Shown here piece after piece: positions 1,850-44,962 of a DNA stretch of 64,000 nt. Positions within the stretch are counted from its first letter, which is position 1, and each line of letters begins with the position of its first letter. The position numbers and the translations under genes were made by a program. Below the pieces are notes generated by a model. It ran no database searches. It was not told the origin of the DNA and saw nothing but the letters and a program-made list of their open reading frames with translations. The DNA is from Escherichia phage finno: sequence record MN850619.1; one strand, written 5' to 3'.

Positions 1850-2629
1850 TCAGCTTATGAATTTGAACTTTTTAGAATACATCAAGTAGTGAACTTCATC
1901 CTGATTTGTTGTGTAGATGTACGCTGCTGGGTAGTTATCAAAGAACACCCCTTCATATCTTCCAAACGGGTCAACTGGGAACATTTCACTGTTACACATA
2001 CCCATCTCACTAACCAGAGGGTAACTAACCTCAACCTTGCCATCAACAAGCTGATAGAGGGTAACTTGATTAGTCTTCCCGTCACTTAGCACGACACCAT
2101 CATAGAATTGTGGTGCTGAGGTAGCATACTTAGGGGTAACTACACTTGCCATTGCTTCATCATAGACGTATAGGTACACATCAACGTTATACATAACACT
2201 ATTAATGAGGCTTTTCACAGCTTGTGCATCTAAACCACCTATACCTGCCCCAATCATGGGTAAACCAATCTTACGAATGTTGTGCAGCCAGCAAAATTTA
2301 CGGAGTTTTTCTAGTGACTCCACTAAGTATCGGTATGATGCACACTTCCCAACATCCAACTGTGTATATAGGTTAAAAATGTAACCATACTCCGTTCGAG
2401 CATGTGACACCTCACCAACCATCTGGTATCCGATATCATGAGCACTGTAGCCAAACTTTTTATGGAATTTCCGGTCAGCTTCTTCAGCTTTTGGGAAAAT
2501 CTTAGCAATTTTTTGAGCGATTCCAGCACCCATGAGGTTACGACAGTTGCAACCATGAGCAATTAACTCAATATCTGTGTTTTTGAAGGCAGCCAGTAAG
2601 TTACCTTTCACAACTTTTACAATACCCAT
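1850..2629 (-). CDS. macro-domain (ADP-ribose binding/hydrolase-like) protein with about 100 aa C-terminal extension
   Basis: Motifs VKVVKGNLL...IAHGCNCRNLMGAGIAQKI and IGLPMIGAGIGGLD resemble macro-domain signatures such as E. coli YmdB (recalled from memory). Confidence 0.6.
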   Translation of the reverse strand: MGIVKVVKGNLLAAFKNTDIELIAHGCNCRNLMGAGIAQKIAKIFPKAEEADRKFHKKFGYSAHDIGYQMVGEVSHARTEYGYIFNLYTQLDVGKCASYRYLVESLEKLRKFCWLHNIRKIGLPMIGAGIGGLDAQAVKSLINSVMYNVDVYLYVYDEAMASVVTPKYATSAPQFYDGVVLSDGKTNQVTLYQLVDGKVEVSYPLVSEMGMCNSEMFPVDPFGRYEGVFFDNYPAAYIYTTNQDEVHYLMYSKKFKFIS

Positions 2630-7133: not shown

Positions 7134-7163
7134 ATTATAAGGGGCTTCAAAGCCCCTTGTCAA
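7134..7163 (-). promoter_or_regulatory. sigma70-type promoter with hairpin in the spacer
   Basis: Minus strand reads TTGACA, 18 nt spacer AGGGGCTTTGAAGCCCCT, TATAAT; about 40 nt upstream of the rIIB-like start. Confidence 0.6.
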
Positions 7164-7168
7164 GCACT

Positions 7169-9535
7169 TTAATCGTAAACTGTAGTCCCTTCTGGAACAC
7201 ATTTTACATCAAAGCCTAAGAACTTACTCACTTCAATAGGTGACACTTTATTCCAATCTAAATGGGAAAGCAAGAAGTTTTCTTGTTTTCTTTTTGAAAG
7301 GTAGTTTGTCACCTTGATAACCATACGGTCACCAGCTTTCTTAATTTTCTTGTACAGTTTTGTATCATTGTCAAGGCATTCTTTCAAAGTTTGCAATCTA
7401 CTAATAGTGTAAGTATATGCAAATGGTGCAGCAACATACTGGATTTTACCGAAAATTGCCTCTACAGCCTCTTCGTTACCTTCTAGGAAGATAGTTTTGC
7501 TAGTATCTCGTGAGTAGCAATAACCACGAGAAATCTTCCTGTTATTGAATGTAAAGTTTCTGGCAATAATCCAACTGCTTGTAAGGTCAAGAACACCATT
7601 CATGTAGGTGCGTGTCATGTACCTGTTATGATTAATCCAATGAACATCAGTTAAGCTGTCGTTCAAGAGCTTCTCATCTACTTCAATCCAGTCTTCTGGT
7701 ATCTTTTTCCAATTTGCTTTTCGGAAAACATAGACTGTCTTTCCAATAACATTAGCAACTGACTTAGCTACATCTTCTGGAGATGAGCAAAAGCATTCGC
7801 CATCAACTGTGTCACCTACTGCCTTAATGTAAAGCTGGGGTTCTTCAATTGTGTCTAAGTCTTCTGACACCTCTTTGTAGGAGGCTACACCTTCTGCTGG
7901 AACAGCTTTCCAGAGTTTTACAACACCTCTTACAGCTTCTTTACGCTGGTAATGGTGTTCCTTATCAGACATTTTCACAATCTTTAACAAGCTTTTATCA
8001 AGTTTGTGTAGATTGATTAAATCATCTAAATCTTTTTCAGTCGAGAATACAAACACAATGCCATTGTATCTGTGAAACAGGCTTGACTCGTTGGCGTAGT
8101 CTCGACATGCACCACGCAGAATCTGATTGCGGCCTACAGTCTTCTCAGTACCGTTTTTATTGCGACGGTCATTAATAACAAACAAAAACTGTTCAATTTG
8201 GCTTTTACGCATTGCGCCAAAGATATTGAACATACTTGCCTCTTGAGTGTAGGAAAGTGCTGTTGCACGAATCTTACTCTCTAAAGAGTTGAACTTGACA
8301 TAAGCAACTGGATTATAAAGATAATCTACTTTAGGGATATTGTTCCCGTTTCTATCAACCTTAATATTACCTTTGCCGTCACGTTCATAAATGACTGAGC
8401 CGTCTTCTGCGTAGATAATCCCACGACGAATGTTTAGTAATTCTTCTTCCAGAGTATCAAGTTTAACACCACCCCACTCTAGCTTTGGACACACAGCATT
8501 AAACATTTCTCGTGAGTTCAAACGTAACTCTGCATAAGCCTGTGCAGCATCCATGAGTGTAGGTTGGCTATTAACTTTCTTGATAACATCCTTTGTAATT
8601 GCTTCAGTTATCTTTTTAGTAGCCTCAATGATAACATTTTTTGTCGTATCATTCATCTGCAATGCTTCACGAGAAGCTGCAATAGCAACTGAACCAATAG
8701 GCATGTAAATGTTTACAAGGTCTACGCTCCTACGGAAAAACTCTGGCAAGACTTTGAAGAAATCATCACCAAGTAATGCTTCCATATTAACTGGATAGGC
8801 AATATTACCCATCACCACATTAAACTCTGTCCTGTTGCCACTAGAACGCCAGCTTTGCTTATGAATCATAGCATCATAAACACCCTCTTCACGGGCAATG
8901 ACGTTCATATCTGCTAACACATCATCATATACAATATTGCTTTCTGGTTTTACAGCAAAGTATGAATATACGTGACCAGCCTCTTCAAAGAACTTTGAAA
9001 TACGGTGGTCAGCAACTGCTACACGTACAGCTAAACCATTGGGTTCATTTGTTGGGTTAGTAGTAAGTTTAGTTACTTGAGGGATACCATTCTCAAGGTA
9101 AACAGAGTACTTATTAACAACACCATCAACATAACTAGATACTGTGAATGACTGAGCAATTGCAAATGGGGATTTTGAGCCGATACCCATTGCACCAATG
9201 TAATCATTAGAGTCATTCTTCGTAGAAGCCCCATAGTTCAGATACAAACTCATTACTTTGTCATGGGTTAAACCAGTTCCAAAGTCACGGACTTCAAAGT
9301 AAGGCTCAAATCGAGTAGGTAAATGCACATGGAACGGGATGTTCTCTTTTCCAGCTTCTTTCTGAGCATCTACTGCATTACATGACAGTTCACGAATCAC
9401 TGCCCTTTCTTTAAATGTGTATACACCAGAACTCAAAAGGCTGAACATTTCAGGTGTCATTGTAATCTGTGCTTGAGATGTCTCCAAAGAAGTTGAACTC
9501 TTAATCACTTCTGCGTGGTCATTTACCATGCGCAT
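7169..9535 (-). CDS. rIIA: rIIA-like protein (GHKL ATPase-like N-terminus)
   Basis: KERAVIRELSCNAVDA, RDFGTGL and SNDYIGAMGIGSKSPF match conserved T4 rIIA N-terminal motifs (recalled from memory). Confidence 0.8.
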   Translation of the reverse strand: MRMVNDHAEVIKSSTSLETSQAQITMTPEMFSLLSSGVYTFKERAVIRELSCNAVDAQKEAGKENIPFHVHLPTRFEPYFEVRDFGTGLTHDKVMSLYLNYGASTKNDSNDYIGAMGIGSKSPFAIAQSFTVSSYVDGVVNKYSVYLENGIPQVTKLTTNPTNEPNGLAVRVAVADHRISKFFEEAGHVYSYFAVKPESNIVYDDVLADMNVIAREEGVYDAMIHKQSWRSSGNRTEFNVVMGNIAYPVNMEALLGDDFFKVLPEFFRRSVDLVNIYMPIGSVAIAASREALQMNDTTKNVIIEATKKITEAITKDVIKKVNSQPTLMDAAQAYAELRLNSREMFNAVCPKLEWGGVKLDTLEEELLNIRRGIIYAEDGSVIYERDGKGNIKVDRNGNNIPKVDYLYNPVAYVKFNSLESKIRATALSYTQEASMFNIFGAMRKSQIEQFLFVINDRRNKNGTEKTVGRNQILRGACRDYANESSLFHRYNGIVFVFSTEKDLDDLINLHKLDKSLLKIVKMSDKEHHYQRKEAVRGVVKLWKAVPAEGVASYKEVSEDLDTIEEPQLYIKAVGDTVDGECFCSSPEDVAKSVANVIGKTVYVFRKANWKKIPEDWIEVDEKLLNDSLTDVHWINHNRYMTRTYMNGVLDLTSSWIIARNFTFNNRKISRGYCYSRDTSKTIFLEGNEEAVEAIFGKIQYVAAPFAYTYTISRLQTLKECLDNDTKLYKKIKKAGDRMVIKVTNYLSKRKQENFLLSHLDWNKVSPIEVSKFLGFDVKCVPEGTTVYD

Positions 9536-9563
9536 AATACTTTCCTCTTAGTTTACTGTTAAA

Positions 9564-9740
9564 TTACTTATTAAACATTTTACCAGAACCACCACAAATA
9601 GGGCAACAGCCTGCTCTTGTATACCCTTCCCCGTTGCAGTAATCACACTTCTTGCACTCTGCATAGTACTTGCAAAGAAGGTAAACAAATACTGCTACAC
9701 TACCAAGTGACAGTAAAATTTCTATCCAATATGCTTGCAT
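9564..9740 (-). CDS. small membrane-anchored protein with DnaJ-type zinc finger (58 aa, not in ORF track)
   Basis: Hand translation: hydrophobic N-terminus then CDYCNGEG and CPICGGSG; GAGGTGA RBS upstream of ATG at 9740. Confidence 0.45.
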   Translation of the reverse strand: MQAYWIEILLSLGSVAVFVYLLCKYYAECKKCDYCNGEGYTRAGCCPICGGSGKMFNK

Positions 9741-10057
9741 GACTCACCTCTCATATTTTTGTAAAGGATAAAGCTTCTGTCATGAACGATACTTGTAGAT
9801 ACTGCAAAGTTACTTTCAAGCATCTGTTTATTTGGATTGTAGAAGCTTTCTTTAAACTCGTCAAGAGCAAACTGGTGATGTTGTGGAAGACCTTTTACGC
9901 AAACCTTTATTGTAATTGCTGCTGCAACCTTACCCGTCAGTTCTTCTTTAGCTGCTACTAAAATTTTGTTAAGGAACTTTTTACCATCTTCAGGTTTCTT
10001 AATATTCTCCCAACGTTCTTCTAGGACAACGTTAATGTTCATTTCTTTGATTTTCAT
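9722..10057 (-). CDS. hypothetical protein
   Basis: 111 aa ORF downstream of NAMPT gene. Confidence 0.55.
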   Translation of the reverse strand: MKIKEMNINVVLEERWENIKKPEDGKKFLNKILVAAKEELTGKVAAAITIKVCVKGLPQHHQFALDEFKESFYNPNKQMLESNFAVSTSIVHDRSFILYKNMRGESCKHIG

Positions 10058-10071
10058 AATCTTCTCCAGAA

Positions 10072-10096
10072 ATTAAAAAGGCTCCCGTAGGAGCCT
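10072..10096 (-). terminator. rho-independent terminator after NAMPT gene
   Basis: GGCTCC-CGTA-GGAGCC hairpin followed on minus strand by TTTTTAATT. Confidence 0.7.
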
Positions 10097-10110
10097 CTTA
10101 TCATATACTT

Positions 10111-11892
10111 TTAAAGCTGCTTGTCAATATTATTTCGAATATCACCAAGAGTTGTGTAACCGAACTGCTCAGAGTCACTAAAGACTAAACGTAAAGCACA
10201 AGCTGGGTGGTCAAGTACATCTGCAAAACTCTGGAATCCATAGCCATCTACAGCTTTCAGCTTATCACCATCCCACATAGGTGCTACACCACCAAAGGCA
10301 GATTTCTTAACACCACTATCTGTTTTAGGGTCTTTTGCAAGCATAATCTCTTTACCACCAATGCTTGCAAGAGTTGCTTTGACAGCAAATGCAAAGGTGT
10401 CACGAGTCATGTACTGGTAAGTGTAAGAACCTACGCCAAACACCACGTTAGAGCTTGCAAAACCCATTTCATACAGACGCTTCAGGATTTCGTTTGCACG
10501 TTCCAGTGTGATAGAGTCACCATAGATAAGGCCGATATGCTCGTCCAGTACCTTAAATCCTTTAGAGTTAATAGTTCCCCCAAAGATGTTGTACAGTGTC
10601 TTAATAGCTCCATCAATCTCAGCTACAGGACGTGTTACAACGTTTGCAGAGCCAACCATATAAGCATTTTTCAACATCACTGTATCAGCAACTTCAAAGT
10701 CTTCTCGGTCAACAACCATTTCGTAGCCTTCTGACAGTAGCCATCCAGCAATACCATAGCTGATGTTTTCAAGCTTCATGTTCAGAACAGCATTCAGCAT
10801 TGTGTCACTGGCTTCCAGCTTGCTTAGGTGCTCGTAATAAGCCTTTTTAGCACACTCTAAGTGGATTGCTTTATAACCTGTGACAATATGTACAGGGTCT
10901 CCAGAGTCAGGACGAATTACCAGTTTACCGTCACGTTCCATAATTTCTTTACGAAGTGCTGGTAAGATTTCTGACACAGTTCTCCAGAAGTTATAAGTGT
11001 CTGAAACAATACTTGCAATACCAGTTGGGTAAGTTTCTGTTAAGAAACGACGGAAGGTTTGTAACTCACCTTTAAATCGTCTTTCTTCTTCAACCAACTC
11101 GTTACCACCTTCCCAAGCAATGTTTGCACACATTACAGAGTGTTCAGTGGCTGGTACAGAGCTTCCAATATCAGAGATTGGATAGGTCTGCCCATAGATA
11201 CGTTTAGCCGTGTATACAGCAGGGAAGCTATCAGTCCCTTTAAAGCTGGTTAAGTGTCCTACAGCGTTGAATGCGTCATCAGTAAAGCCGGACATACCAC
11301 GCATAGCAAAGTCATGGCACTGATAAGGTAAATGCAAGTCGTTGTCGCAAGTGAGGTCAGCCCACTTCTTACAGATACGTTTGTAGTGCAATGCAATAGT
11401 TGCAATGGTGCAAGCCTTCCAAATCTCAGCAGAGAAAGCGTCTTCTAGATAACCTGCTACCCAATGGAAACCTGAAACAGTGTTCTGGAAGACAATCATT
11501 GGAACACGCATAGGAACAACTGTACCTTCTTCTACAGCGTATACTTCAACTGGTAGATAGCCTAAATCGTGAAGTGCTTCCCAATGCTCTCGACCGATAG
11601 CATCTTTACCCAGAACACCATTCATGACTTCTAAGATTTCGTCAACTGCTCCTTTTTTATCACGTTCAAAGAAAGTGGCGTTCCAGTGGTCTATCAAGTA
11701 ATCTTTAACAAAACGTTGAATACCAAAAGCTACTACACCATCAATTGCTAAGGGGCTGTTAAACCATTTGTCGCTACGTGGTGTCAGGTTGAACATCAAG
11801 TAATCTGTTGCACTGGGGTATTGGTAAACATGGCCAGATTTGTAAGCGTCCGCGTTTAAACCTGCTGGTACTGCATAAAGTGATTTAGTCAT
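10111..11892 (-). CDS. nadV: nicotinamide phosphoribosyltransferase (NAMPT)
   Basis: 593 aa; N-terminal ADAYKSGHVYQYP is characteristic of NAMPT. Confidence 0.8.
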   Translation of the reverse strand: MTKSLYAVPAGLNADAYKSGHVYQYPSATDYLMFNLTPRSDKWFNSPLAIDGVVAFGIQRFVKDYLIDHWNATFFERDKKGAVDEILEVMNGVLGKDAIGREHWEALHDLGYLPVEVYAVEEGTVVPMRVPMIVFQNTVSGFHWVAGYLEDAFSAEIWKACTIATIALHYKRICKKWADLTCDNDLHLPYQCHDFAMRGMSGFTDDAFNAVGHLTSFKGTDSFPAVYTAKRIYGQTYPISDIGSSVPATEHSVMCANIAWEGGNELVEEERRFKGELQTFRRFLTETYPTGIASIVSDTYNFWRTVSEILPALRKEIMERDGKLVIRPDSGDPVHIVTGYKAIHLECAKKAYYEHLSKLEASDTMLNAVLNMKLENISYGIAGWLLSEGYEMVVDREDFEVADTVMLKNAYMVGSANVVTRPVAEIDGAIKTLYNIFGGTINSKGFKVLDEHIGLIYGDSITLERANEILKRLYEMGFASSNVVFGVGSYTYQYMTRDTFAFAVKATLASIGGKEIMLAKDPKTDSGVKKSAFGGVAPMWDGDKLKAVDGYGFQSFADVLDHPACALRLVFSDSEQFGYTTLGDIRNNIDKQL

Positions 11893-11912
11893 CTTTTAAT
11901 CTCTCTCAAAAT

Positions 11913-11928
11913 GGGGCTTTCAAGCCCC
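11913..11928 (-). promoter_or_regulatory. GGGGCTT/AAGCCCC stem-loop between prs and NAMPT genes
   Basis: Hairpin GGGGCTTTCAAGCCCC; same stem family as the 5' cassettes and the 7141-7158 promoter hairpin. Confidence 0.45.
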
Positions 11929-11937
11929 TATAAAGTT

Positions 11938-12843
11938 TCAATCAATGGTTGCTACAGTAACTTGGGCGTAATGTGTTAAGCCACGGTCTTTAGCTTCACC
12001 TAAAGAGTTTGTAGTGTAGATATGGTCAATACCATTGTCAAGTAAGTTTTCAACACCTTTAGAGAAAATACCATGAGTTACATAGAGTTCCACACGTTTT
12101 GCACCTGCTTCACGGAGATGTTTCGCTGCTTCTATGAAGGTTCGACCACCATCACAGATATCATCCAGAATCATGACGGTTTTATCTGTCAAATCAGCAT
12201 CGTCAAGGATTCGCATACCAGTGATTTCTCCCGTCTTAAGATTGCGCACTTTAGACATTGTGATGTATGGTTTATCCACCTCTTTAGCAGTCTCTGCAAT
12301 CTTCTTAGCAGCACCTGCATCTGGGGCTACTAAGTAATCAATTAGAGGGTCATTTGCATAGTGAACTGCAATTTCCTTTTGAGGAATACTCTGGAAGCAG
12401 TTAAACAGGTTATCTGGTACATAGCTGTGAGGGTCAACTGCACAGACTGCATCAAAACCCATTGCATTAACCTGTTGTGCAAACACTTTCAAAGCTGCTG
12501 CATCACCTTTAAACATGTGACGGTCGTAACGTGCATTTGGCAAATAGTAAAAGATAGCAGTCTTCATAGCAAACTTATGGGGTACTAAATCGTCAATTGC
12601 TTCTTTAGCAAGTGCCACAGCAAATAATGTGTCTTTGTCATAACCCTTTACAATCATAATCACGTTGTTGATGGATGATGCTGCATAAGCAGTAAAATCA
12701 ACAAGCTCTTGTGAAAAGTGTCCACCAATCTCACCAGAAGGGAACTGGATGATGTTAAACTCTTCTTCATGAGACCCTTTTGTCGGTGAATGAATTATAA
12801 CACGAATAGATGTTTTCATAGTTTTCTCTCTCTTTATTCCCAA
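11938..12843 (-). CDS. prs: ribose-phosphate pyrophosphokinase (PRPP synthetase)
   Basis: 301 aa; VMILDDICDGGRTF is the PRPP-binding phosphoribosyltransferase motif. Confidence 0.8.
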   Translation of the reverse strand: MGIKREKTMKTSIRVIIHSPTKGSHEEEFNIIQFPSGEIGGHFSQELVDFTAYAASSINNVIMIVKGYDKDTLFAVALAKEAIDDLVPHKFAMKTAIFYYLPNARYDRHMFKGDAAALKVFAQQVNAMGFDAVCAVDPHSYVPDNLFNCFQSIPQKEIAVHYANDPLIDYLVAPDAGAAKKIAETAKEVDKPYITMSKVRNLKTGEITGMRILDDADLTDKTVMILDDICDGGRTFIEAAKHLREAGAKRVELYVTHGIFSKGVENLLDNGIDHIYTTNSLGEAKDRGLTHYAQVTVATID

Positions 12844-13241
12844 ATAACCTTTCTACGCTTTATCTGGATAATGTTCTTTTTACAATATTCGATAGCTTCA
12901 TCTATTGACCCAAAACTTTCCTTCTCCACAAAGAAGCGAACTTCACCATCTTGTATCTTTTGTTCTTCGGCTGTTGGCTCTTCAAGTATTTTACTTGATA
13001 CTTCTCTGTTAATCTGCATTACATACTCGAAAGAGTTCTTCTTGTATCCAACTATTTTAATGTAACCCCTCTGGCGAAGACGATTGAACCGAGTTGACTT
13101 GTTTGTCTTGGATACATCTGGAAATTCCTTGTCATGGATACTACGTATCTGTGAGCAAGTAAATGTTTTATCATAGCCAAACTCATTATACAGGACTTTT
13201 AACAGTTCAATCATAACATCACTCCCAAATAACTTTTGCAT
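12834..13241 (-). CDS. paralog family protein, subtype B copy 2
   Basis: Start moved to ATG at 13241 (MQKLFGSDVM) to match subtype B copy 1; shares C-terminal motif ending KVIWE. Confidence 0.55.
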   Translation of the reverse strand: MQKLFGSDVMIELLKVLYNEFGYDKTFTCSQIRSIHDKEFPDVSKTNKSTRFNRLRQRGYIKIVGYKKNSFEYVMQINREVSSKILEEPTAEEQKIQDGEVRFFVEKESFGSIDEAIEYCKKNIIQIKRRKVIWE

Positions 13242-13683
13242 GTTTAACTTTAATAAGATGCTCTTTGCAGTGCTCAATAGCTTCATCTAGTGTTTTAAAC
13301 ATAACATCCGCGATAAAGTATCTTACGTCAGGTTGTACATCAACATCTTTAACCTCAGATAAGTTTGATTTTTGTGAACTCCCCAACTCTTCACGCGTGT
13401 TATCTAGCATCCTTGACAGTTGTATGTGCTTCTCCATAAAGGCTCGATTTAATTGATTAATACTTAGTCTACCTTTGCTTTTTACCTGCCCTACAGTCAG
13501 TAGTACACCAGACTGTCTTAACATTGTTAGATACCCACGGGTATTACTGATTGACTGGCCTCGTATAAAAAGGCTATTCTCTCTTAATGCGTCAATTGCT
13601 TCGTTAGAGTCAAAAGTGTTTTCTGTCCCGAAGGTTTTGTATAAAATCTCTATTACGTGCTTCTGTAAATTGCAAAAAATCAT
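13219..13683 (-). CDS. paralog family protein, subtype A copy 2
   Basis: Colinear with 14105..14560 over its whole length (MIFC..QK..IEILY...FDSNEAI...EHCK...KVIWE). Confidence 0.6.
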   Translation of the reverse strand: MIFCNLQKHVIEILYKTFGTENTFDSNEAIDALRENSLFIRGQSISNTRGYLTMLRQSGVLLTVGQVKSKGRLSINQLNRAFMEKHIQLSRMLDNTREELGSSQKSNLSEVKDVDVQPDVRYFIADVMFKTLDEAIEHCKEHLIKVKHAKVIWE

Positions 13684-13704
13684 AGTGTATTCCTAATCAA
13701 ATGT

Positions 13705-14127
13705 TTAAACTTCTTCCCAAACAATACGCTTTCTTTTTGTTTGGATAACCGTCCTCTTACAATGCTCAACTGCTGCCTCCATACTGGTAAAGTGTATGTC
13801 ACCTATGAAGTACCCTACTTCACCTACACTGACCTCTTCATCCTTTTGTTGATAGTCATTACAATTTAAAAGCACATTTTTAGCTTTGCTTTCATTGATT
13901 CTCATAAGATACTCATTATTAAATCCTGTCGCTCCAACAACACTAATGTACCCACTTTTACGTAATCTGTGAGACCAATTAGCTTTATCCCTGATTGAAG
14001 CATGTGGTAGATATTTATTAAAAACCTTAGTTAGTTGTGAGCCAGAAAATGTTTTATCATAGCCAAAATTTATATACAGAACCTTCAGAAGCTCAAACAT
14101 GTTATTACTCCCAAATAATTTTTGCAC
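13705..14127 (-). CDS. paralog family protein, subtype B copy 1
   Basis: MQKLFGSNNMFELLKVLY N-terminus; C-terminal AAVEHCKRTVIQTKRKRIVWE. Confidence 0.6.
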   Translation of the reverse strand: MQKLFGSNNMFELLKVLYINFGYDKTFSGSQLTKVFNKYLPHASIRDKANWSHRLRKSGYISVVGATGFNNEYLMRINESKAKNVLLNCNDYQQKDEEVSVGEVGYFIGDIHFTSMEAAVEHCKRTVIQTKRKRIVWEEV

Positions 14128-14560
14128 GTTTTACTTTGATAATATACTTTTTGCAGTGTTCAACAGCATCTTGGAGTGTATCAAACATCAACTCACCAAT
14201 AAAGAATTTTATGTCTGGAGACACACCTACACCACCACTTAAGTCTTTTTGCTGCTCTTCACGTTGGTTTCGTGGCTCTTTAAGTAAATAGTCTAGCTGA
14301 ATGTGCTTCTCAATAAAACCTCTATTTAATTGGTTGATGAGCATCCTCCCTTGTTGCTTAATCTGTCCTACCACGATGAGCACACCCCACTTTCTCATCT
14401 GAGTCAAGTAGTACCTGATGTTTGCTATTGGCTGTTTTTTGATGTAATCACTTCCTTCTTGTAGGGCTTCAATAGCTTCATTTGAGTCAAATGTGTTATC
14501 TGTCCCAAACTTATTGTATAGAATCTCAATAATTCTTTTTTGGAAGCTGCAAAAAATCAT
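14105..14560 (-). CDS. paralog family protein, subtype A copy 1
   Basis: 151 aa; C-terminal DAVEHCKKYIIKVKRAKIIWE. Confidence 0.6.
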   Translation of the reverse strand: MIFCSFQKRIIEILYNKFGTDNTFDSNEAIEALQEGSDYIKKQPIANIRYYLTQMRKWGVLIVVGQIKQQGRMLINQLNRGFIEKHIQLDYLLKEPRNQREEQQKDLSGGVGVSPDIKFFIGELMFDTLQDAVEHCKKYIIKVKRAKIIWE

Positions 14561-14569
14561 AATTTTCTC

Positions 14570-14848
14570 TCAATCAAAAGTTACGTTTGTTACTGCCATT
14601 GCAGATTTGCATTTTACAGGGTCTACAACGTGATAAAGTACACTACAGTTACCTGTGCTGTCTGGTACAGGCTTTACCCATTGCTGCTTTATAGTTGGCT
14701 CCCCTAAGTCTTTGTAAGAGCCATCTGTAAAGTTGTTTACCATCTCAAGTGCAATTGGTTCTGGAACATGACCACGTATCATGTACATTTCACAACCATT
14801 ACCACCTTCACTGACTAATGGTAAAATCTCCCACTTCTCTTTAGCCAT
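14570..14848 (-). CDS. hypothetical protein
   Basis: 92 aa ORF. Confidence 0.5.
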   Translation of the reverse strand: MAKEKWEILPLVSEGGNGCEMYMIRGHVPEPIALEMVNNFTDGSYKDLGEPTIKQQWVKPVPDSTGNCSVLYHVVDPVKCKSAMAVTNVTFD

Positions 14849-15356
14849 TGTAAGTCGCCCTATAAACTGTCTCGAACTTCAACAGGAGAGATATTGCCAA
14901 ATCTGTATAGTTGTTGTCAAGCACATCTGGCATATTATTTTTGATATATTTCTCTTGCTCTTCATAGGTCATCTTAGGAGTGCTTAGAAGGTTATCTCCT
15001 TGCTTCTGGTTATCAAGTTTAGTCTGGATAAACCAGTTTGCACAGTGATGCTCACCACCCTTTGTAACAGGTTTGTGGTGGCCTAATGTAAATGTTTGCT
15101 TACCTGTATACCTGCAAAGATTGTTCAGTGTTGCAATAGTGTTCTTCACAACACACCATTCATATAGGTTATCTATTGTGTAGTGTGGGTAATAACGGAC
15201 AAGTGCTCTTTCACGGAAGTTATCACGATTCCAAAGAACCATGTGATTCGAGTTAGAAGGGTCGTATTGGTGGGAGTCAATGAACTCTTGACGCTCCTCA
15301 AAGCTGAGTCTTAGAACTGACATTGCAGCCGAACGTTTCAGGTTTGACAGATACAT
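14841..15356 (-). CDS. HNH endonuclease-like protein
   Basis: GHHKPVTKGGEHHCANW...NQKQG resembles the HNH motif. Confidence 0.55.
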   Translation of the reverse strand: MYLSNLKRSAAMSVLRLSFEERQEFIDSHQYDPSNSNHMVLWNRDNFRERALVRYYPHYTIDNLYEWCVVKNTIATLNNLCRYTGKQTFTLGHHKPVTKGGEHHCANWFIQTKLDNQKQGDNLLSTPKMTYEEQEKYIKNNMPDVLDNNYTDLAISLLLKFETVYRATYNG

Positions 15357-15363
15357 ATCATCT

Positions 15364-15395
15364 CCAAAATAAAAAGGGAACCTTTACAGTTCCCT
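15364..15395 (-). terminator. rho-independent terminator
   Basis: GGGAAC-CTTTACA-GTTCCC hairpin followed on minus strand by TTTTTATTTTGG. Confidence 0.75.
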
Positions 15396-15407
15396 TATAG
15401 TATCTGT

Positions 15408-15728
15408 TTACTGAGCTACTTTCAAGATGCTTGTGAATGAAATCTCACTCTCATCCATAAACTCTTTTGCTTCTCCAGTAACTTTTACAAAGTTATCTAG
15501 GCAGATAATCTTCTTATCTTTCTTGCTATAGGTTAGCTTGACCTTTTCGATATCTTTCTTAGAGTTTTTCTCTTCATTAAAGAGCTTCACAGCTTCTTTA
15601 AATGGTAGGTATGAACCATCATCATCGCTAATAAAACCTGTGCCACAATAGTAGAAGTTGTATTCTTTAGCCATAAACTGACACAGTACGAAAATCTGTA
15701 ATTTGCGAGTGTTATAGACTTTGCTCAT
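15408..15728 (-). CDS. hypothetical protein
   Basis: 106 aa ORF. Confidence 0.55.
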   Translation of the reverse strand: MSKVYNTRKLQIFVLCQFMAKEYNFYYCGTGFISDDDGSYLPFKEAVKLFNEEKNSKKDIEKVKLTYSKKDKKIICLDNFVKVTGEAKEFMDESEISFTSILKVAQ

Positions 15729-15730
15729 GA

Positions 15731-15988
15731 TTATTTAGCCTTCTTATTACGTTTACGGTTACGAGCTTTCTTAGCTGCTCGTTTAATAGCTGCTGCACCA
15801 GACGGACGATGGGCTTGTTTCTTACCACCTTTGCCACGGCCTACATAGATACTTTTCATAATCTCATTGGCCAGCTTCTCATCCATCTTGAAGTTCTGCA
15901 TAAGATGAGTCACATCAACTCCAGTGAGCATACCTAATGAAGCTAGTGCTGCTTTTACTTTTGATTTAAAACTATTCCAGATTCCCAT
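15731..15988 (-). CDS. small basic protein, Lys/Arg-rich C-terminus
   Basis: 85 aa; C-terminal AAKKARNRKRNKKAK. Confidence 0.5.
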   Translation of the reverse strand: MGIWNSFKSKVKAALASLGMLTGVDVTHLMQNFKMDEKLANEIMKSIYVGRGKGGKKQAHRPSGAAAIKRAAKKARNRKRNKKAK

Positions 15989-16113
15989 TTCGTATCTCTC
16001 TCAATCTTTTCACAAAATGTTTTAAGTTCTTCTTCAGTGACACCAAACGGTTAAGTTTGTTCTGTAGAACATTGTAAAGTGGCCTTTACCGATAACCTAC
16101 TTTACGACGAAAC

Positions 16114-16599
16114 TTACTCGGCTCTCCACTGACAATCACCTTGCCACCCATACTCTTTTCTCCATAGGTTTTGGTTATCAGAACCACGATACGGTTTAAC
16201 TGTTGGTTTAGATGAATCATACTTACCATCAATCACCACGTCAACATATTTCATTACATCTAGGTGAATTTTTTCGTGTAACTGAAAACCTGTCCAGAGC
16301 CAGATAGACTTCTCTGGGTAAACAGTTTTAATACGTTTACATATATTGGTAACCTCTTGAATATTTCTATCATCCAGAGGTTCTCCACCAAGTATTGACA
16401 AACCACTGACAGCATTATCACCCATTAGTTGGATGATTCCGTAGAGGTTTGCATAAGTAAATGCTTTACCAGCATTAAACTTCCAAGACTCCCTGTTAAA
16501 GCAGCCTTCACAGTGATGTTTACAGCCAGCTACGAAGAGGCTTACACGAACCCCTTCACCATTAGCTGTATCGAATGGTCTAATCTCCATGTAATTCAT
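16114..16599 (-). CDS. nrdG: anaerobic ribonucleotide reductase activating protein
   Basis: Radical-SAM cluster motif GCKHHCEGCFN near N-terminus; located just before nrdD. Confidence 0.8.
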   Translation of the reverse strand: MNYMEIRPFDTANGEGVRVSLFVAGCKHHCEGCFNRESWKFNAGKAFTYANLYGIIQLMGDNAVSGLSILGGEPLDDRNIQEVTNICKRIKTVYPEKSIWLWTGFQLHEKIHLDVMKYVDVVIDGKYDSSKPTVKPYRGSDNQNLWRKEYGWQGDCQWRAE

Positions 16600-44944: not shown

Positions 44945-44962
44945 AGGGGCTATACAGCCCCT
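44945..44962 (-). promoter_or_regulatory. stem-loop between the two tail fibre genes
   Basis: AGGGGCT-ATACA-GCCCCT hairpin; weak T-run (TTTTAAG) then GAGGA RBS. Confidence 0.4.

Follow-up and report, generated by a model that had tools for sequence, protein, structure and literature searches.

Introduction

NAD+ reconstitution pathway 1 (NARP1) was discovered in Escherichia phage Bas63 (JohannRWettstein, MZ501086), where genes 79-80 encode it (Osterman et al., bioRxiv 10.1101/2024.02.11.579819). That study began from the expectation, based on annotation, that the two genes would act through PRPP and NMN, and its experiments contradicted this expectation. Bas63 lacking both genes (Δ79-80) no longer overcame SIR2-HerA and did not hold its NAD+ levels, and ADPR-PP (m/z 720.010) was detected only when the operon was intact. 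A ΔpncC ΔnadR host did not sensitise the phage, and type II Thoeris, a system without NAD+ depletion, was not cancelled by NARP1. With purified proteins, the Prs-like enzyme of SPbetaL1 converted ADPR to ADPR-PP, but no product could be measured in the Prs control reaction (ribose-5-phosphate, going by the Fig. 2D legend), and the NAMPT-like enzyme favoured ADPR-PP over PRPP and made NAD+ directly, NAD+ being the sole product detected when both donors were offered (bioRxiv 10.1101/2024.02.11.579819). In an independent knockout screen, single deletion of g79 or g80 cut plating on Sir2-HerA by 10^4 to 10^6, and the Bas63 counter to NAD+-depleting defence has now been shown by two independent groups.

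The enzyme activities have been demonstrated for the SPbetaL1, ICP1, DyoEdafos and P. foliorum homologues, and the in vivo evidence comes from Bas63. Because Bas63 Adps resisted purification, the in vitro data for this enzyme were obtained with homologues of only about 30-40% identity. Both NARP1 enzymes have now been solved structurally. In the NARP1 mechanism, a defence NADase (e.g. SIR2-HerA, DSR2 or type I Thoeris) cleaves NAD+ to ADP-ribose and nicotinamide; Adps uses ATP to move a pyrophosphate onto C1'' of the terminal ribose of ADP-ribose, yielding ADPR-PP and AMP; and in the Namat reaction nicotinamide displaces the pyrophosphate of ADPR-PP, so that NAD+ is regenerated in one step. 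PRPP, NMN and NMN adenylyltransferase (NMNAT) play no part in this route.

Several relatives of this system are known. RyDEP and Adpp, the latter a NARP1-associated ADPR-1''-phosphate phosphatase (bioRxiv 10.64898/2026.01.28.702374), have each been found as an extra gene inserted in NARP1 operons. NARP1 itself is ineffective against aRES. NARP2 (Vibrio phage KVP40) combines the Nampt NadV with the bifunctional Nmnat NatV, and NARP3 a PnuC-like transporter with a NadR-like bifunctional enzyme. Here we compare with these systems a gene pair of Escherichia phage finno, taken from a stretch of 64,000 nucleotides (MN850619.1) that we refer to as the window.

Results

A Prs-like and a NAMPT-like gene in a Felixounavirus

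The window is Felixounavirus DNA; at the nucleotide level it is 92-96% identical to many phages of the Felix O1 type. The two genes of interest are as follows.

11938..12819, minus strand: adps, putative Prs-like ADP-ribose pyrophosphate synthetase (293 aa with the ATG at 12819 as start)
10111..11892, minus strand: namat, putative NAMPT-like nicotinamide ADP-ribose transferase, 593 aa

They are co-directional, adps lying upstream and namat downstream, with a gap of 45 nt between them (11893-11937). The NAMPT-like protein matched phrog_448 (E 1e-200) and Pfam NAPRTase (3e-35), and passed the NCBIfam model NF006629 with 467 bits against a cut-off of 405, which confirms the NAMPT fold at the family level. 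The Prs-like protein matched phrog_619 (E 1e-98). Both family assignments are far beyond chance. A sequence-only reading of this DNA had assigned the proteins to the Prs and NAMPT families and had described adjacent, co-directional genes with a stem-loop between them. The profile searches agree with the first statement, and the second is borne out by the arrangement on the minus strand and by a 6-bp GC hairpin in the spacer. Public records likewise name the pair Prs and NAMPT, as do the Pfam, NCBIfam and PHROG labels.

The closest described system is NARP1 of Bas63. It comes from the same genus and has the same gene order, the same 45-nt spacer with its hairpin, the same protein lengths and all of the same diagnostic residues. 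The window differs in three respects: the N-terminal part of its Adps is of another allele, a four-gene cassette that Bas63 lacks lies directly upstream of adps, and Bas63 gp81, which follows namat in that phage, is absent. The core two enzymes are also those of NARP1-AP, the three-gene form of Vibrio phage Gary (Adps, the Macro phosphatase Adpp and Namat; bioRxiv 10.64898/2026.01.28.702374). From homology, gene order and the retention of published diagnostic residues, we put the probability that the pair represents NARP1 of a Felixounavirus at roughly 0.93. This is a pathway already described: the phage in which it was defined belongs to the same genus and has near-identical genes. The purpose proposed in the sequence-only reading, a link to NAD+ and a role against its depletion, is thus upheld by the deletion phenotypes of the near-identical Bas63 operon; the chemistry that it proposed (PRPP, NMN and an NMNAT) is not.

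The pair is located in the nucleotide-metabolism half of the genome, with ribonucleotide reductase, thymidylate synthase and dNMP kinase genes as neighbours. Such a position would also suit a general supply function, in which the Prs-like enzyme boosts PRPP for phage nucleotide synthesis and has no role in defence. We regard this as extremely improbable, since the effect of deletion is confined to systems that deplete NAD+, type II Thoeris not being cancelled, and the SPbetaL1 homologue gave nothing measurable in the Prs control reaction.

The Prs-like protein carries Adps signatures

The longest open reading frame of adps (11938-12843) begins with TTG. The ATG at 12819 is the likely true start, as it is preceded by the ribosome-binding sequence GAGAGAGA and fits the annotation of the gene in Bas63 and ESCO49 (882 nt). 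The resulting protein aligns without gaps to Bas63 gp79, which has the same length of 293 aa, at 80% identity (234/293). The differences are found mainly in the N-terminal ~180 residues, and at the nucleotide level identity to the Bas63 gene is 59-67% at the 5' end and >92% further downstream. About 150 phage records have the allele of the window, which is the more frequent of the two in Felixounaviruses.

As a PRPP synthetase the protein scores poorly. It only just exceeds the cut-off of the broad subfamily model TIGR01251 (121.8 against 113 bits) and falls below that of every Prs equivalog or subfamily PRK model (e.g. 102.8 against 296 and 90.8 against 297 bits). It shares fold and catalytic residues with E. 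coli Prs, as the NAMPT-like protein does with bacterial and human NAMPT, but identity to E. coli Prs is 23% and the C-terminal helices of that enzyme are missing: the proteins measure 293 and 315 aa, the alignment stops before the last Prs helices, and the TIGR01251 match ends at profile position 289 of 309. Loss of the PRPS C-terminal α11-α12 module is diagnostic of Adps (PMC13586617), and this loss is seen in the window protein. With the equivalog cut-offs failed and the C-terminal regulatory/filament module absent, we rejected an identity as canonical PRPP synthetase.

Other published diagnostics of Adps are a catalytic β-hairpin Lys (K185 in ICP1, K162 in SPbetaL1), an Arg, a His and an Asp in the acceptor site, and the donor (PP) loop (PMC13586617). 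We compared these features by alignment to the gene of the structurally characterised ICP1 Adps. The catalytic lysine is present as K190, the equivalent of ICP1 Lys185, and F26, R97, H131, D167 and R192 are kept. The donor loop reads DDICDGGRTF (D219-D220-I221-C222-D223-G-G-R-T-F228); SPbetaL1 and ICP1 NARP1 share the DDICD-type loop and the truncated Prs C-terminus, but ICP1 has A-A-S where the window has G-R-T. In addition, ICP1 F92 aligns to M102, with F103 adjacent, and ICP1 F223 to E230, so that some contact residues differ.

The NAMPT-like protein carries the Namat clamp

The NAMPT-like protein is 99% identical to Bas63 gp80 (585/593), again with equal length (593 aa). Its best match among solved structures, at 430 bits, is PDB 9w5w/9w5x, which we take to be the SPbetaL1 Namat of PMC12774641 because the residue numbering corresponds. 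In contrast, Xanthomonas Nampt and human NAMPT scored 181 and 138 bits, respectively.

Namat has a Nampt-like core consisting of nicotinamide-stacking Phe and Tyr, Asp, Arg and a catalytic His (PMC12774641). The window protein keeps this core (D15, Y17, F195, R198, D221, H251, R327, D329 and G458-D459), and all catalytic and NAD+-contacting residues are retained. What distinguishes Namat is a selectivity-clamp helix with the signature GS-X-φ-X-φ-X-φ-TRD (PMC12774641), which in the window reads GSYTYQYMTRD (aa 488-498), Y490 and Y494 being aligned to SPbetaL1 F392 and Y396. Catalytic cores, clamp-helix motif and catalytic Lys are thus shared with SPbetaL1 Namat (PMC12774641) and ICP1 Adps (PMC13586617). 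The clamp loop of Namat has a stacking Arg at position 3, or else Lys/Tyr there with position 4 stacking, and Bas63 provides the published example of the Lys type (PMC12774641). The loop of the window, S40-D41-K42-W43, is identical to that of Bas63. It differs from SPbetaL1 and ICP1 in having Lys-Trp in place of the stacking Arg, and from its sequence K42-W43 would be expected to stack in the manner of Bas63. Two insertions also set the window protein apart from SPbetaL1 and ICP1, one of ~77 aa after the RPDSGDP strand (about 351-427) and one of 15 aa (262-272 plus 4 residues at 258-261). From these comparisons, we infer that the window Adps and Namat have the same activities as their characterised homologues.

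The clamp bears on a more permissive view, in which NARP1 remains the main function and Namat additionally turns host PRPP into NMN, opening a second path to NAD+ that matters physiologically, e.g. under a defence whose products are other than free ADPR. In favour of such dual use, SPbetaL1 Namat makes NMN from PRPP and nicotinamide in vitro when ADPR-PP is absent (PMC12774641), its NMN-forming activity is about half that of human NAMPT, and clamp mutants retain it. Nevertheless, with both donors present only NAD+ is formed, no phage NMNAT was found in either the window or the Bas63 genome, and NARP1 fails against aRES even though nicotinamide and host PRPP are available, which argues that the PRPP route is insufficient in vivo. 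Dual use therefore seems quite unlikely.

An NMN adenylyltransferase is neither found nor needed

The sequence-only reading had PRPP synthetase feeding a NAMPT that makes NMN, and left the last step to an NMNAT of the host or encoded outside the window. Its observation that no NMNAT is visible in the window holds. No Pfam match to CTP_transf_like, Nudix or NadR was obtained in the 30 otherwise unannotated and 9 neighbouring ORFs of the window, and when E. coli NadD and NadR were searched with phmmer --max against the six-frame ORFs of the window and the complete Bas63 genome the best E value was 0.57. The Pfam scan of these 39 ORFs also found no PnuC or RyR genes. There is thus neither a NadR match nor any Pfam family of the kind that would indicate NARP3.

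NARP1 does without an NMNAT, and the absence of one is no gap in the pathway, given that the window proteins bear the published Adps and Namat signatures and share 80% and 99% identity with their Bas63 counterparts. The window resembles NARP2 of KVP40 in having a phage NAMPT-family enzyme that restores NAD+; however, NARP2 takes PRPP, makes NMN and requires a phage Nmnat, whereas the window has no Nmnat and does have the Namat clamp. The earlier proposal was in effect NARP2 minus its second enzyme. With no partner NMNAT in the window or the Bas63 genome, and with the adenine clamp present, we rejected Namat as a NAMPT of the NARP2 type or NMN route.

A route from PRPP through NMN, completed by a host or off-window NMNAT, nevertheless agrees with the names given by Pfam, NCBIfam, PHROG and the public records, and with the in vitro conversion of PRPP by SPbetaL1 Namat in the absence of ADPR-PP. 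We consider it very improbable. It was tested and rejected in Bas63, where the ΔpncC ΔnadR host had no effect; the SPbetaL1 Prs-like enzyme made ADPR-PP from ADPR yet no Prs control product; NAD+ alone was formed when both substrates were present; and the window proteins themselves argue against it, the Prs-like one being below all Prs equivalog cut-offs and lacking the Prs C-terminal module, the NAMPT-like one possessing the clamp motif. The Bas63 and SPbetaL1 experiments hence contradict the supply of PRPP to a NAMPT as well as the dependence on an outside NMNAT.

The main value of NARP1 in the window is accordingly the correction of an annotation, and it adds little as a discovery. The database names (ribose-phosphate pyrophosphokinase, nicotinamide phosphoribosyltransferase) and the sequence-only reading lead to a pathway that is plausible but experimentally wrong, and they imply that an NMNAT step is missing, when the pathway has none. 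The right annotation helps to predict which phages escape defences that deplete NAD+, among them SIR2-HerA, DSR2, Thoeris I and Kongming, as in the choice of therapeutic phages.

The transcription unit and a cassette upstream of adps

Folding and terminator scans around the pair, together with the ORFs upstream of it, gave the following features.

11913..11928, minus strand: spacer hairpin GGGGCU / UGAA / AGCCCC, a 6-bp GC stem within the adps-namat spacer
10076..10099, minus strand: terminator-like hairpin with T-run, directly 3' of namat (terminator scan)
15374..15396, minus strand: upstream terminator-like hairpin (terminator scan)
12834..14560, minus strand: four tandem paralogs (150, 154, 140 and 151 aa; phrog_29478), immediately upstream of adps

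The adps-namat spacer has a folding energy of -12.6 kcal/mol (z = -2.6 relative to shuffled sequences). Its hairpin is identical in Bas63 but weakened in ESCO49 by two uncompensated G-to-A changes, was not called in the terminator scan and has no Rfam match. Moreover, the GGGGCT...AGCCCC stem occurs in six copies in the window, where 0.01 would be expected, and one of the five copies elsewhere lies in the rIIA-rIIB spacer. For these reasons we rejected a specific regulatory element and regard the hairpin as a generic intergenic one. The hairpin at 10076-10099 (-17.2 kcal/mol, z = -3.1) is probably the 3' end of the transcription unit. Its 5' boundary is probably the hairpin at 15374-15396, in which case gp77-like and gp78-like genes would belong to the unit together with the four paralogs, adps and namat. 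No further terminator-like site was detected by the scan between 15374 and 10099.

The cassette is a tandem duplication of a two-gene unit and apparently lies within the same terminator-bounded unit as adps and namat. It is rare: 15 of 50,697 phage records contain it, Bas63 does not, and its paralogs form only 8 clusters in 5.8 billion proteins. They match no Pfam family. The AlphaFold model of a paralog is of moderate quality (pLDDT 70) and has a confidently predicted winged-helix N-terminal domain; in Foldseek it matches MarR/PadR-type regulators only weakly (E about 3e-3). Neither Pfam, cluster, AlphaFold nor Foldseek comparisons revealed a link to ADP-ribose chemistry. The cassette is thus a neighbour of adps-namat and only a candidate member of NARP1. 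It may represent a new accessory of NARP1 with a regulatory or anti-defence role, which would parallel the RyDEP and Adpp insertions in other NARP1 operons. We also considered, and rejected, a joint arrival of the cassette and the divergent 5' part of adps: with about 150 phage records for the allele against 15 for the cassette, the two are not strictly linked.

A distal Macro-domain protein

A further gene that may be relevant lies outside this unit.

1850..2629, minus strand: Macro-domain protein, 259 aa (Pfam Macro, 28.9 bits against a cut-off of 22)

It is on the same strand as namat, about 7.5 kb and about 12 genes downstream. The protein shows 28% identity (E 2e-13) to the validated Adpp of Vibrio phage Gary and 36% (E 6e-26) to the NARP1-associated Macro protein of JG004; its range against the listed Adpp proteins, 28-36%, compares with 24-60% among the Adpps themselves. 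Its best PDB matches are TARG1/OARD1, 5m31 (an 'Appr-1-p processing domain protein' macrodomain) and yeast Poa1p. Unlike the Adpps of NARP1-AP, it has a C-terminal extension of roughly 100 aa and reads GGLD-Q where they read GGDW. Again unlike NARP1-AP, its gene is neither inside nor adjoining the adps-namat operon, and none of the 9 ORFs flanking the pair is a Macro gene, two genes on either side being the NARP1-AP criterion. The published NARP1-AP table has no Escherichia or Salmonella phage (bioRxiv 10.64898/2026.01.28.702374); since that survey scanned only two genes on each side of NARP1, an unlinked Adpp would have escaped it.

By sequence, the Macro protein is therefore only a candidate accessory of NARP1. 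aRES should still block this phage unless the protein provides Adpp activity; if it is an unlinked Adpp, NARP1 could also beat NAD+ phosphorolysis of the aRES type. In a wider version of this idea, a larger and dispersed set of NAD+ counter-defence functions in this Felixounavirus lineage would have NARP1 as its core, with the Macro protein as an unlinked Adpp-type phosphatase and the winged-helix cassette as an accessory, which we think rather unlikely. The Macro family is also common in T-even phages (39% identity to Gary Adpp), and among Escherichia-named phage records 996 have a Macro homologue and 177 an Adps homologue.

The gene pair is an instance of NARP1

Two adjoining minus-strand ORFs, a Prs-like gene followed by a NAMPT-like gene with a stem-loop (a 6-bp hairpin) between them, were present as a sequence-only reading had described them:

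11938-12843, minus strand: Prs-like ORF, longest form, TTG start
ATG at 12819, minus strand: likely start of adps, an 882-nt gene (293 aa)
10111-11892, minus strand: namat, NAMPT-like ORF (593 aa), downstream of adps

Translation of adps probably starts at the ATG at 12819: a GAGAGAGA ribosome-binding sequence lies in front of it, and the resulting 882-nt gene is the one annotated in related phages. Profile searches of both proteins, which that reading had proposed, left no doubt about their families. Adps matched phrog_619 (E 1e-98) and Pfam Pribosyltran and Pribosyl_synth; the sole cut-off passed was that of the broad TIGR01251 subfamily (121.8 bits), and every Prs equivalog model was failed by a wide margin. 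Namat matched phrog_448 (E 1e-200) and NCBIfam NF006629 (467 bits).

More than 200 Felix O1-like phages (genus Felixounavirus) of Escherichia, Salmonella, Shigella and Citrobacter share 92-96% nucleotide identity with this 3-kb region. A member of this genus, Bas63 (JohannRWettstein, MZ501086), has genes 79-80 in the same order and separated by the same 45 nt, and their products match those of the window in length (293 and 593 aa). Namat is identical to gp80 at 585 of 593 residues, and Adps to gp79 at 234 of 293, ungapped. NAD+ reconstitution pathway 1 (NARP1) was first described for these Bas63 genes and occurs in about 4% of ~20,000 phage genomes surveyed (Osterman et al, bioRxiv 10.1101/2024.02.11.579819). 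Since NARP1 is published and was discovered in this very genus, the pair is a textbook instance of a system already known.

The sequence-only reading had a PRPP synthetase feeding a NAMPT that makes NMN. Osterman et al began with the same expectation, drawn from annotation, of PRPP from Prs, NMN from Nampt and completion by host NadR or PncC, and found it to be wrong. They saw a new metabolite, ADPR-pyrophosphate (ADPR-PP; m/z 720.010), in the presence of the operon only. The Prs-like enzyme of the SPbetaL1 homologue, purified and named Adps, transferred pyrophosphate to ADP-ribose, and no product could be measured in its Prs control reaction (ribose-5-phosphate, per their Fig. 2D legend). The NAMPT-like enzyme, named Namat, converted ADPR-PP and nicotinamide directly to NAD+, which was also the sole product when PRPP and ADPR-PP were offered jointly. 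The PRPP-to-NMN chemistry is thus contradicted by the Bas63 and SPbetaL1 experiments. The proposed purpose, countering NAD+ depletion, was right. In an independent genome-wide knockout study, single deletion of g79 or g80 lowered Bas63 plating on Sir2-HerA cells 10^4- to 10^6-fold. Taken as a whole, the earlier reading stood in its observation and its purpose and fell in its chemistry.

By this route, a defence NADase would yield ADP-ribose and nicotinamide, Adps would use ATP to convert the ADP-ribose to ADPR-PP, and Namat would combine ADPR-PP with nicotinamide to give NAD+. We infer these activities, demonstrated in relatives, for the window proteins from homology and conserved residues, and the Adps/Namat mechanism is the best-supported account of the pair.

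The absence of a visible NMN adenylyltransferase was borne out by Pfam scans and phmmer. No nucleotidyltransferase, Nudix, NadR, PnuC or RyR family was found by Pfam in the nine ORFs flanking the pair or in 30 ORFs (≥85 aa, 1-42 kb) with no other annotation. Unfiltered phmmer searches with E. coli NadD and NadR against all six-frame ORFs of the window and the whole Bas63 genome (87.1 kb) gave a best E of 0.57. The supposed need for such an enzyme from the host or from outside the window disappears, as NARP1 requires neither Nmnat nor PnuC/NadR, and the negative searches fit this pathway. They exclude NARP2, which requires a phage Nmnat (Osterman et al), none being found in the window or Bas63, and NARP3 (PnuC plus NadR), neither component being found.

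Conserved residues and allelic variation

[quoted passage not shown] Window Adps was aligned with ICP1 Adps, Bas63 gp79, E. coli Prs and the Adps of Vibrio phage Pontus, which comes from a NARP1-AP operon (NARP1 with a Macro phosphatase) listed beside the validated Gary operon (aRES study, bioRxiv 10.64898/2026.01.28.702374). In this alignment it carries F26, R97, H131, D167, K190 and R192, has the loop D219-D220-I221-C222-D223-G-G-R-T-F228, and stops short of the last E. coli Prs helices. It differs from ICP1 Adps at two contact residues: F92 there corresponds to M102, with F103 adjacent, and F223 to E230.

Nucleotide identity of adps to Bas63 is 59-67% in the first 300 nt and 59-79% in the first 450 nt (12370-12819), against 88-100% over the rest of the pair (92-100% through namat). 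The low 5' identity indicates that the window has a different N-terminal Adps allele from Bas63, and that its Adps is mosaic. Among phage records of Felixounaviruses the window allele is the commoner one, with about 150 records at ≥90% identity to it and about 100 at 60-90%, the range that includes Bas63. Namat, unlike the mosaic Adps, is almost invariant.

Three features define Namat: a catalytic core like that of Nampt, a selectivity-clamp helix and a clamp loop that varies (PMC12774641). [quoted passage not shown] SPbetaL1 numbering was transferred by HMMER alignment to PDB 9w5x, taken as SPbetaL1 Namat because the numbering reproduces D13, Y15 and R40 of PMC12774641. Window Namat keeps all of D15, Y17, F195, R198, D221, H251, R327, D329 and G458-D459, with the clamp motif GSYTYQYMTRD at 488-498 and a clamp loop, S40-D41-K42-W43, identical to that of Bas63. 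It scored 430 bits to 9w5w/9w5x, 181 to Xanthomonas Nampt and 138 to human NAMPT.

Felixounavirus Namat also has an insertion of ~77 aa (aa ~351-427; window 10612-10842, minus strand) following the RPDSGDP strand and a second of 15 aa (aa 258-272). SPbetaL1 and ICP1 Namat have neither; at the site of the first, Pontus Namat carries an insertion that is shorter and unrelated. The Namat structure paper does not discuss the ~77-aa insertion (PMC12774641).

The transcription unit and the spacer hairpin

15396-15374, minus strand: terminator-like site from a terminator scan, upstream end
10099-10076, minus strand: terminator-like hairpin with T-run from the same scan, 3' of namat
7141-7156, 11913-11928 and 44946-44961: short hairpin GGGGCT-NNNN-AGCCCC, in spacers within gene clusters

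The two terminator-like sites, the only ones on the minus strand in 9400-16200, flank eight co-directional genes, of which adps and namat are the last, and we infer that all eight are co-transcribed. The first gene after the upstream terminator is a 171-aa ORF (14841-15356, minus strand; phrog_3500), which weakly matches an HNH-endonuclease PHROG (E 4.5e-6) and is the counterpart of Bas63 gp77, a protein reported to counter the Ec67 retron (PhageMaP preprint). Sigma-70-like promoter matches at 10100-10127 (minus strand; TTGACA-16-TATGAT, 11/12) and 15397-15425 (minus strand; TTGAAA-17-TACTAT, 9/12) both stop exactly at the start of the respective terminator hairpin, so that transcripts initiated there would begin inside it. 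Promoter matches overall numbered 19 versus 17 expected, a count not above chance.

The 45-nt adps-namat spacer contains a 6-bp GC hairpin that is identical in Bas63, has a stem weakened by uncompensated changes in ESCO49, and gave no Rfam match. Its stem, GGGGCT...AGCCCC, has six matches in the window versus 0.01 expected by chance: three long-loop copies and three short hairpins, which lie in the rIIA-rIIB spacer (7141-7156), between adps and namat, and between two tail-fibre-region genes. With six such stems across the window, the spacer hairpin is not specific to the pair; it may be a genome-wide RNA stability or processing element.

An upstream cassette and a distal Macro-domain gene

12834-14560, minus strand: four tandem phrog_29478 paralogs (140-154 aa), directly upstream of adps
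1850-2629, minus strand: Macro-domain ORF (259 aa; Pfam PF01661, 28.9 bits, above the Macro cut-off)

Anything new could come only from these two features, and the evidence is too thin for such a claim. Window 12767-14556 has no counterpart in Bas63. The phrog_29478 array is a tandemly duplicated two-gene unit that repeats every ~880 nt at 74-76% identity. Of 50,697 phage records, just 15 contain the family, each a Felixounavirus with two or four copies, and it forms only 8 clusters among 5.8 billion proteins. An AlphaFold model of a paralog (pLDDT 70; above 80 over the N-terminal 90 residues) predicts an N-terminal winged helix and a small C-terminal beta-beta-alpha domain with a conserved ...VIWE end, and in Foldseek the model weakly matched MarR/PadR regulators. 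These analyses found no link to NAD+ chemistry.

The Macro gene lies about 7.5 kb, or about 12 genes, from NARP1. Its counterpart, Bas63_0095 ('putative phosphatase'), is only 41% identical, and at ≥95% identity the window allele is present in just 12 phage records. Some NARP1 operons carry a Poa1p-like Macro phosphatase, Adpp, which turns ADPR-1''-phosphate, made by the aRES defence system, into ADPR and so enables NARP1, the extended pathway being NARP1-AP (bioRxiv 10.64898/2026.01.28.702374). The window protein is 28-36% identical to Adpp proteins of Vibrio and Pseudomonas phages: 28% to the validated Gary Adpp (E 2e-13) and 36% to the operon-associated Macro protein of JG004 (E 6e-26). The listed Adpp proteins share 24-60% identity among themselves. 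These values are evidence for membership of the same broad family, and the window could hold a split NARP1-AP. The published survey, which lists no Escherichia or Salmonella phage, covered two genes each side of NARP1 (bioRxiv 10.64898/2026.01.28.702374) and would therefore miss a gene about 12 genes away. However, T-even phages commonly carry this Macro family, with a T4-like member 39% identical to Gary Adpp, and among Escherichia-named records 996 have a Macro homologue versus 177 with an Adps homologue, which argues against a dedicated link to NARP1. Two further points speak against it. Felixounavirus Macro proteins have GGLD-Q in place of the GGDW loop and an extra C-terminal extension of ~100 aa. 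The best solved-structure matches are TARG1/OARD1 and 5m31, an 'Appr-1-p processing domain protein' that we take to be a DarG-type antitoxin macrodomain, and yeast Poa1p matches the N-terminal part only. A TARG1/DarG-like de-ADP-ribosylating role is therefore equally open.

Just past the 3' end of the Macro gene, at 1633-1795, are three direct repeats of 43 nt (CTGCAC..TT..AAAATGA...), 63-72% identical and spaced 45 and 75 nt apart. A 93-nt intergenic module that includes a GGGGCTTA...TAAGCCCC hairpin is present in three copies (233-325, 613-705 and 1083-1175; 74-90% identical), with further copies between small Bas63 genes (15.8-19.2 kb); these are probably promoter/terminator modules repeated through the early-gene region.
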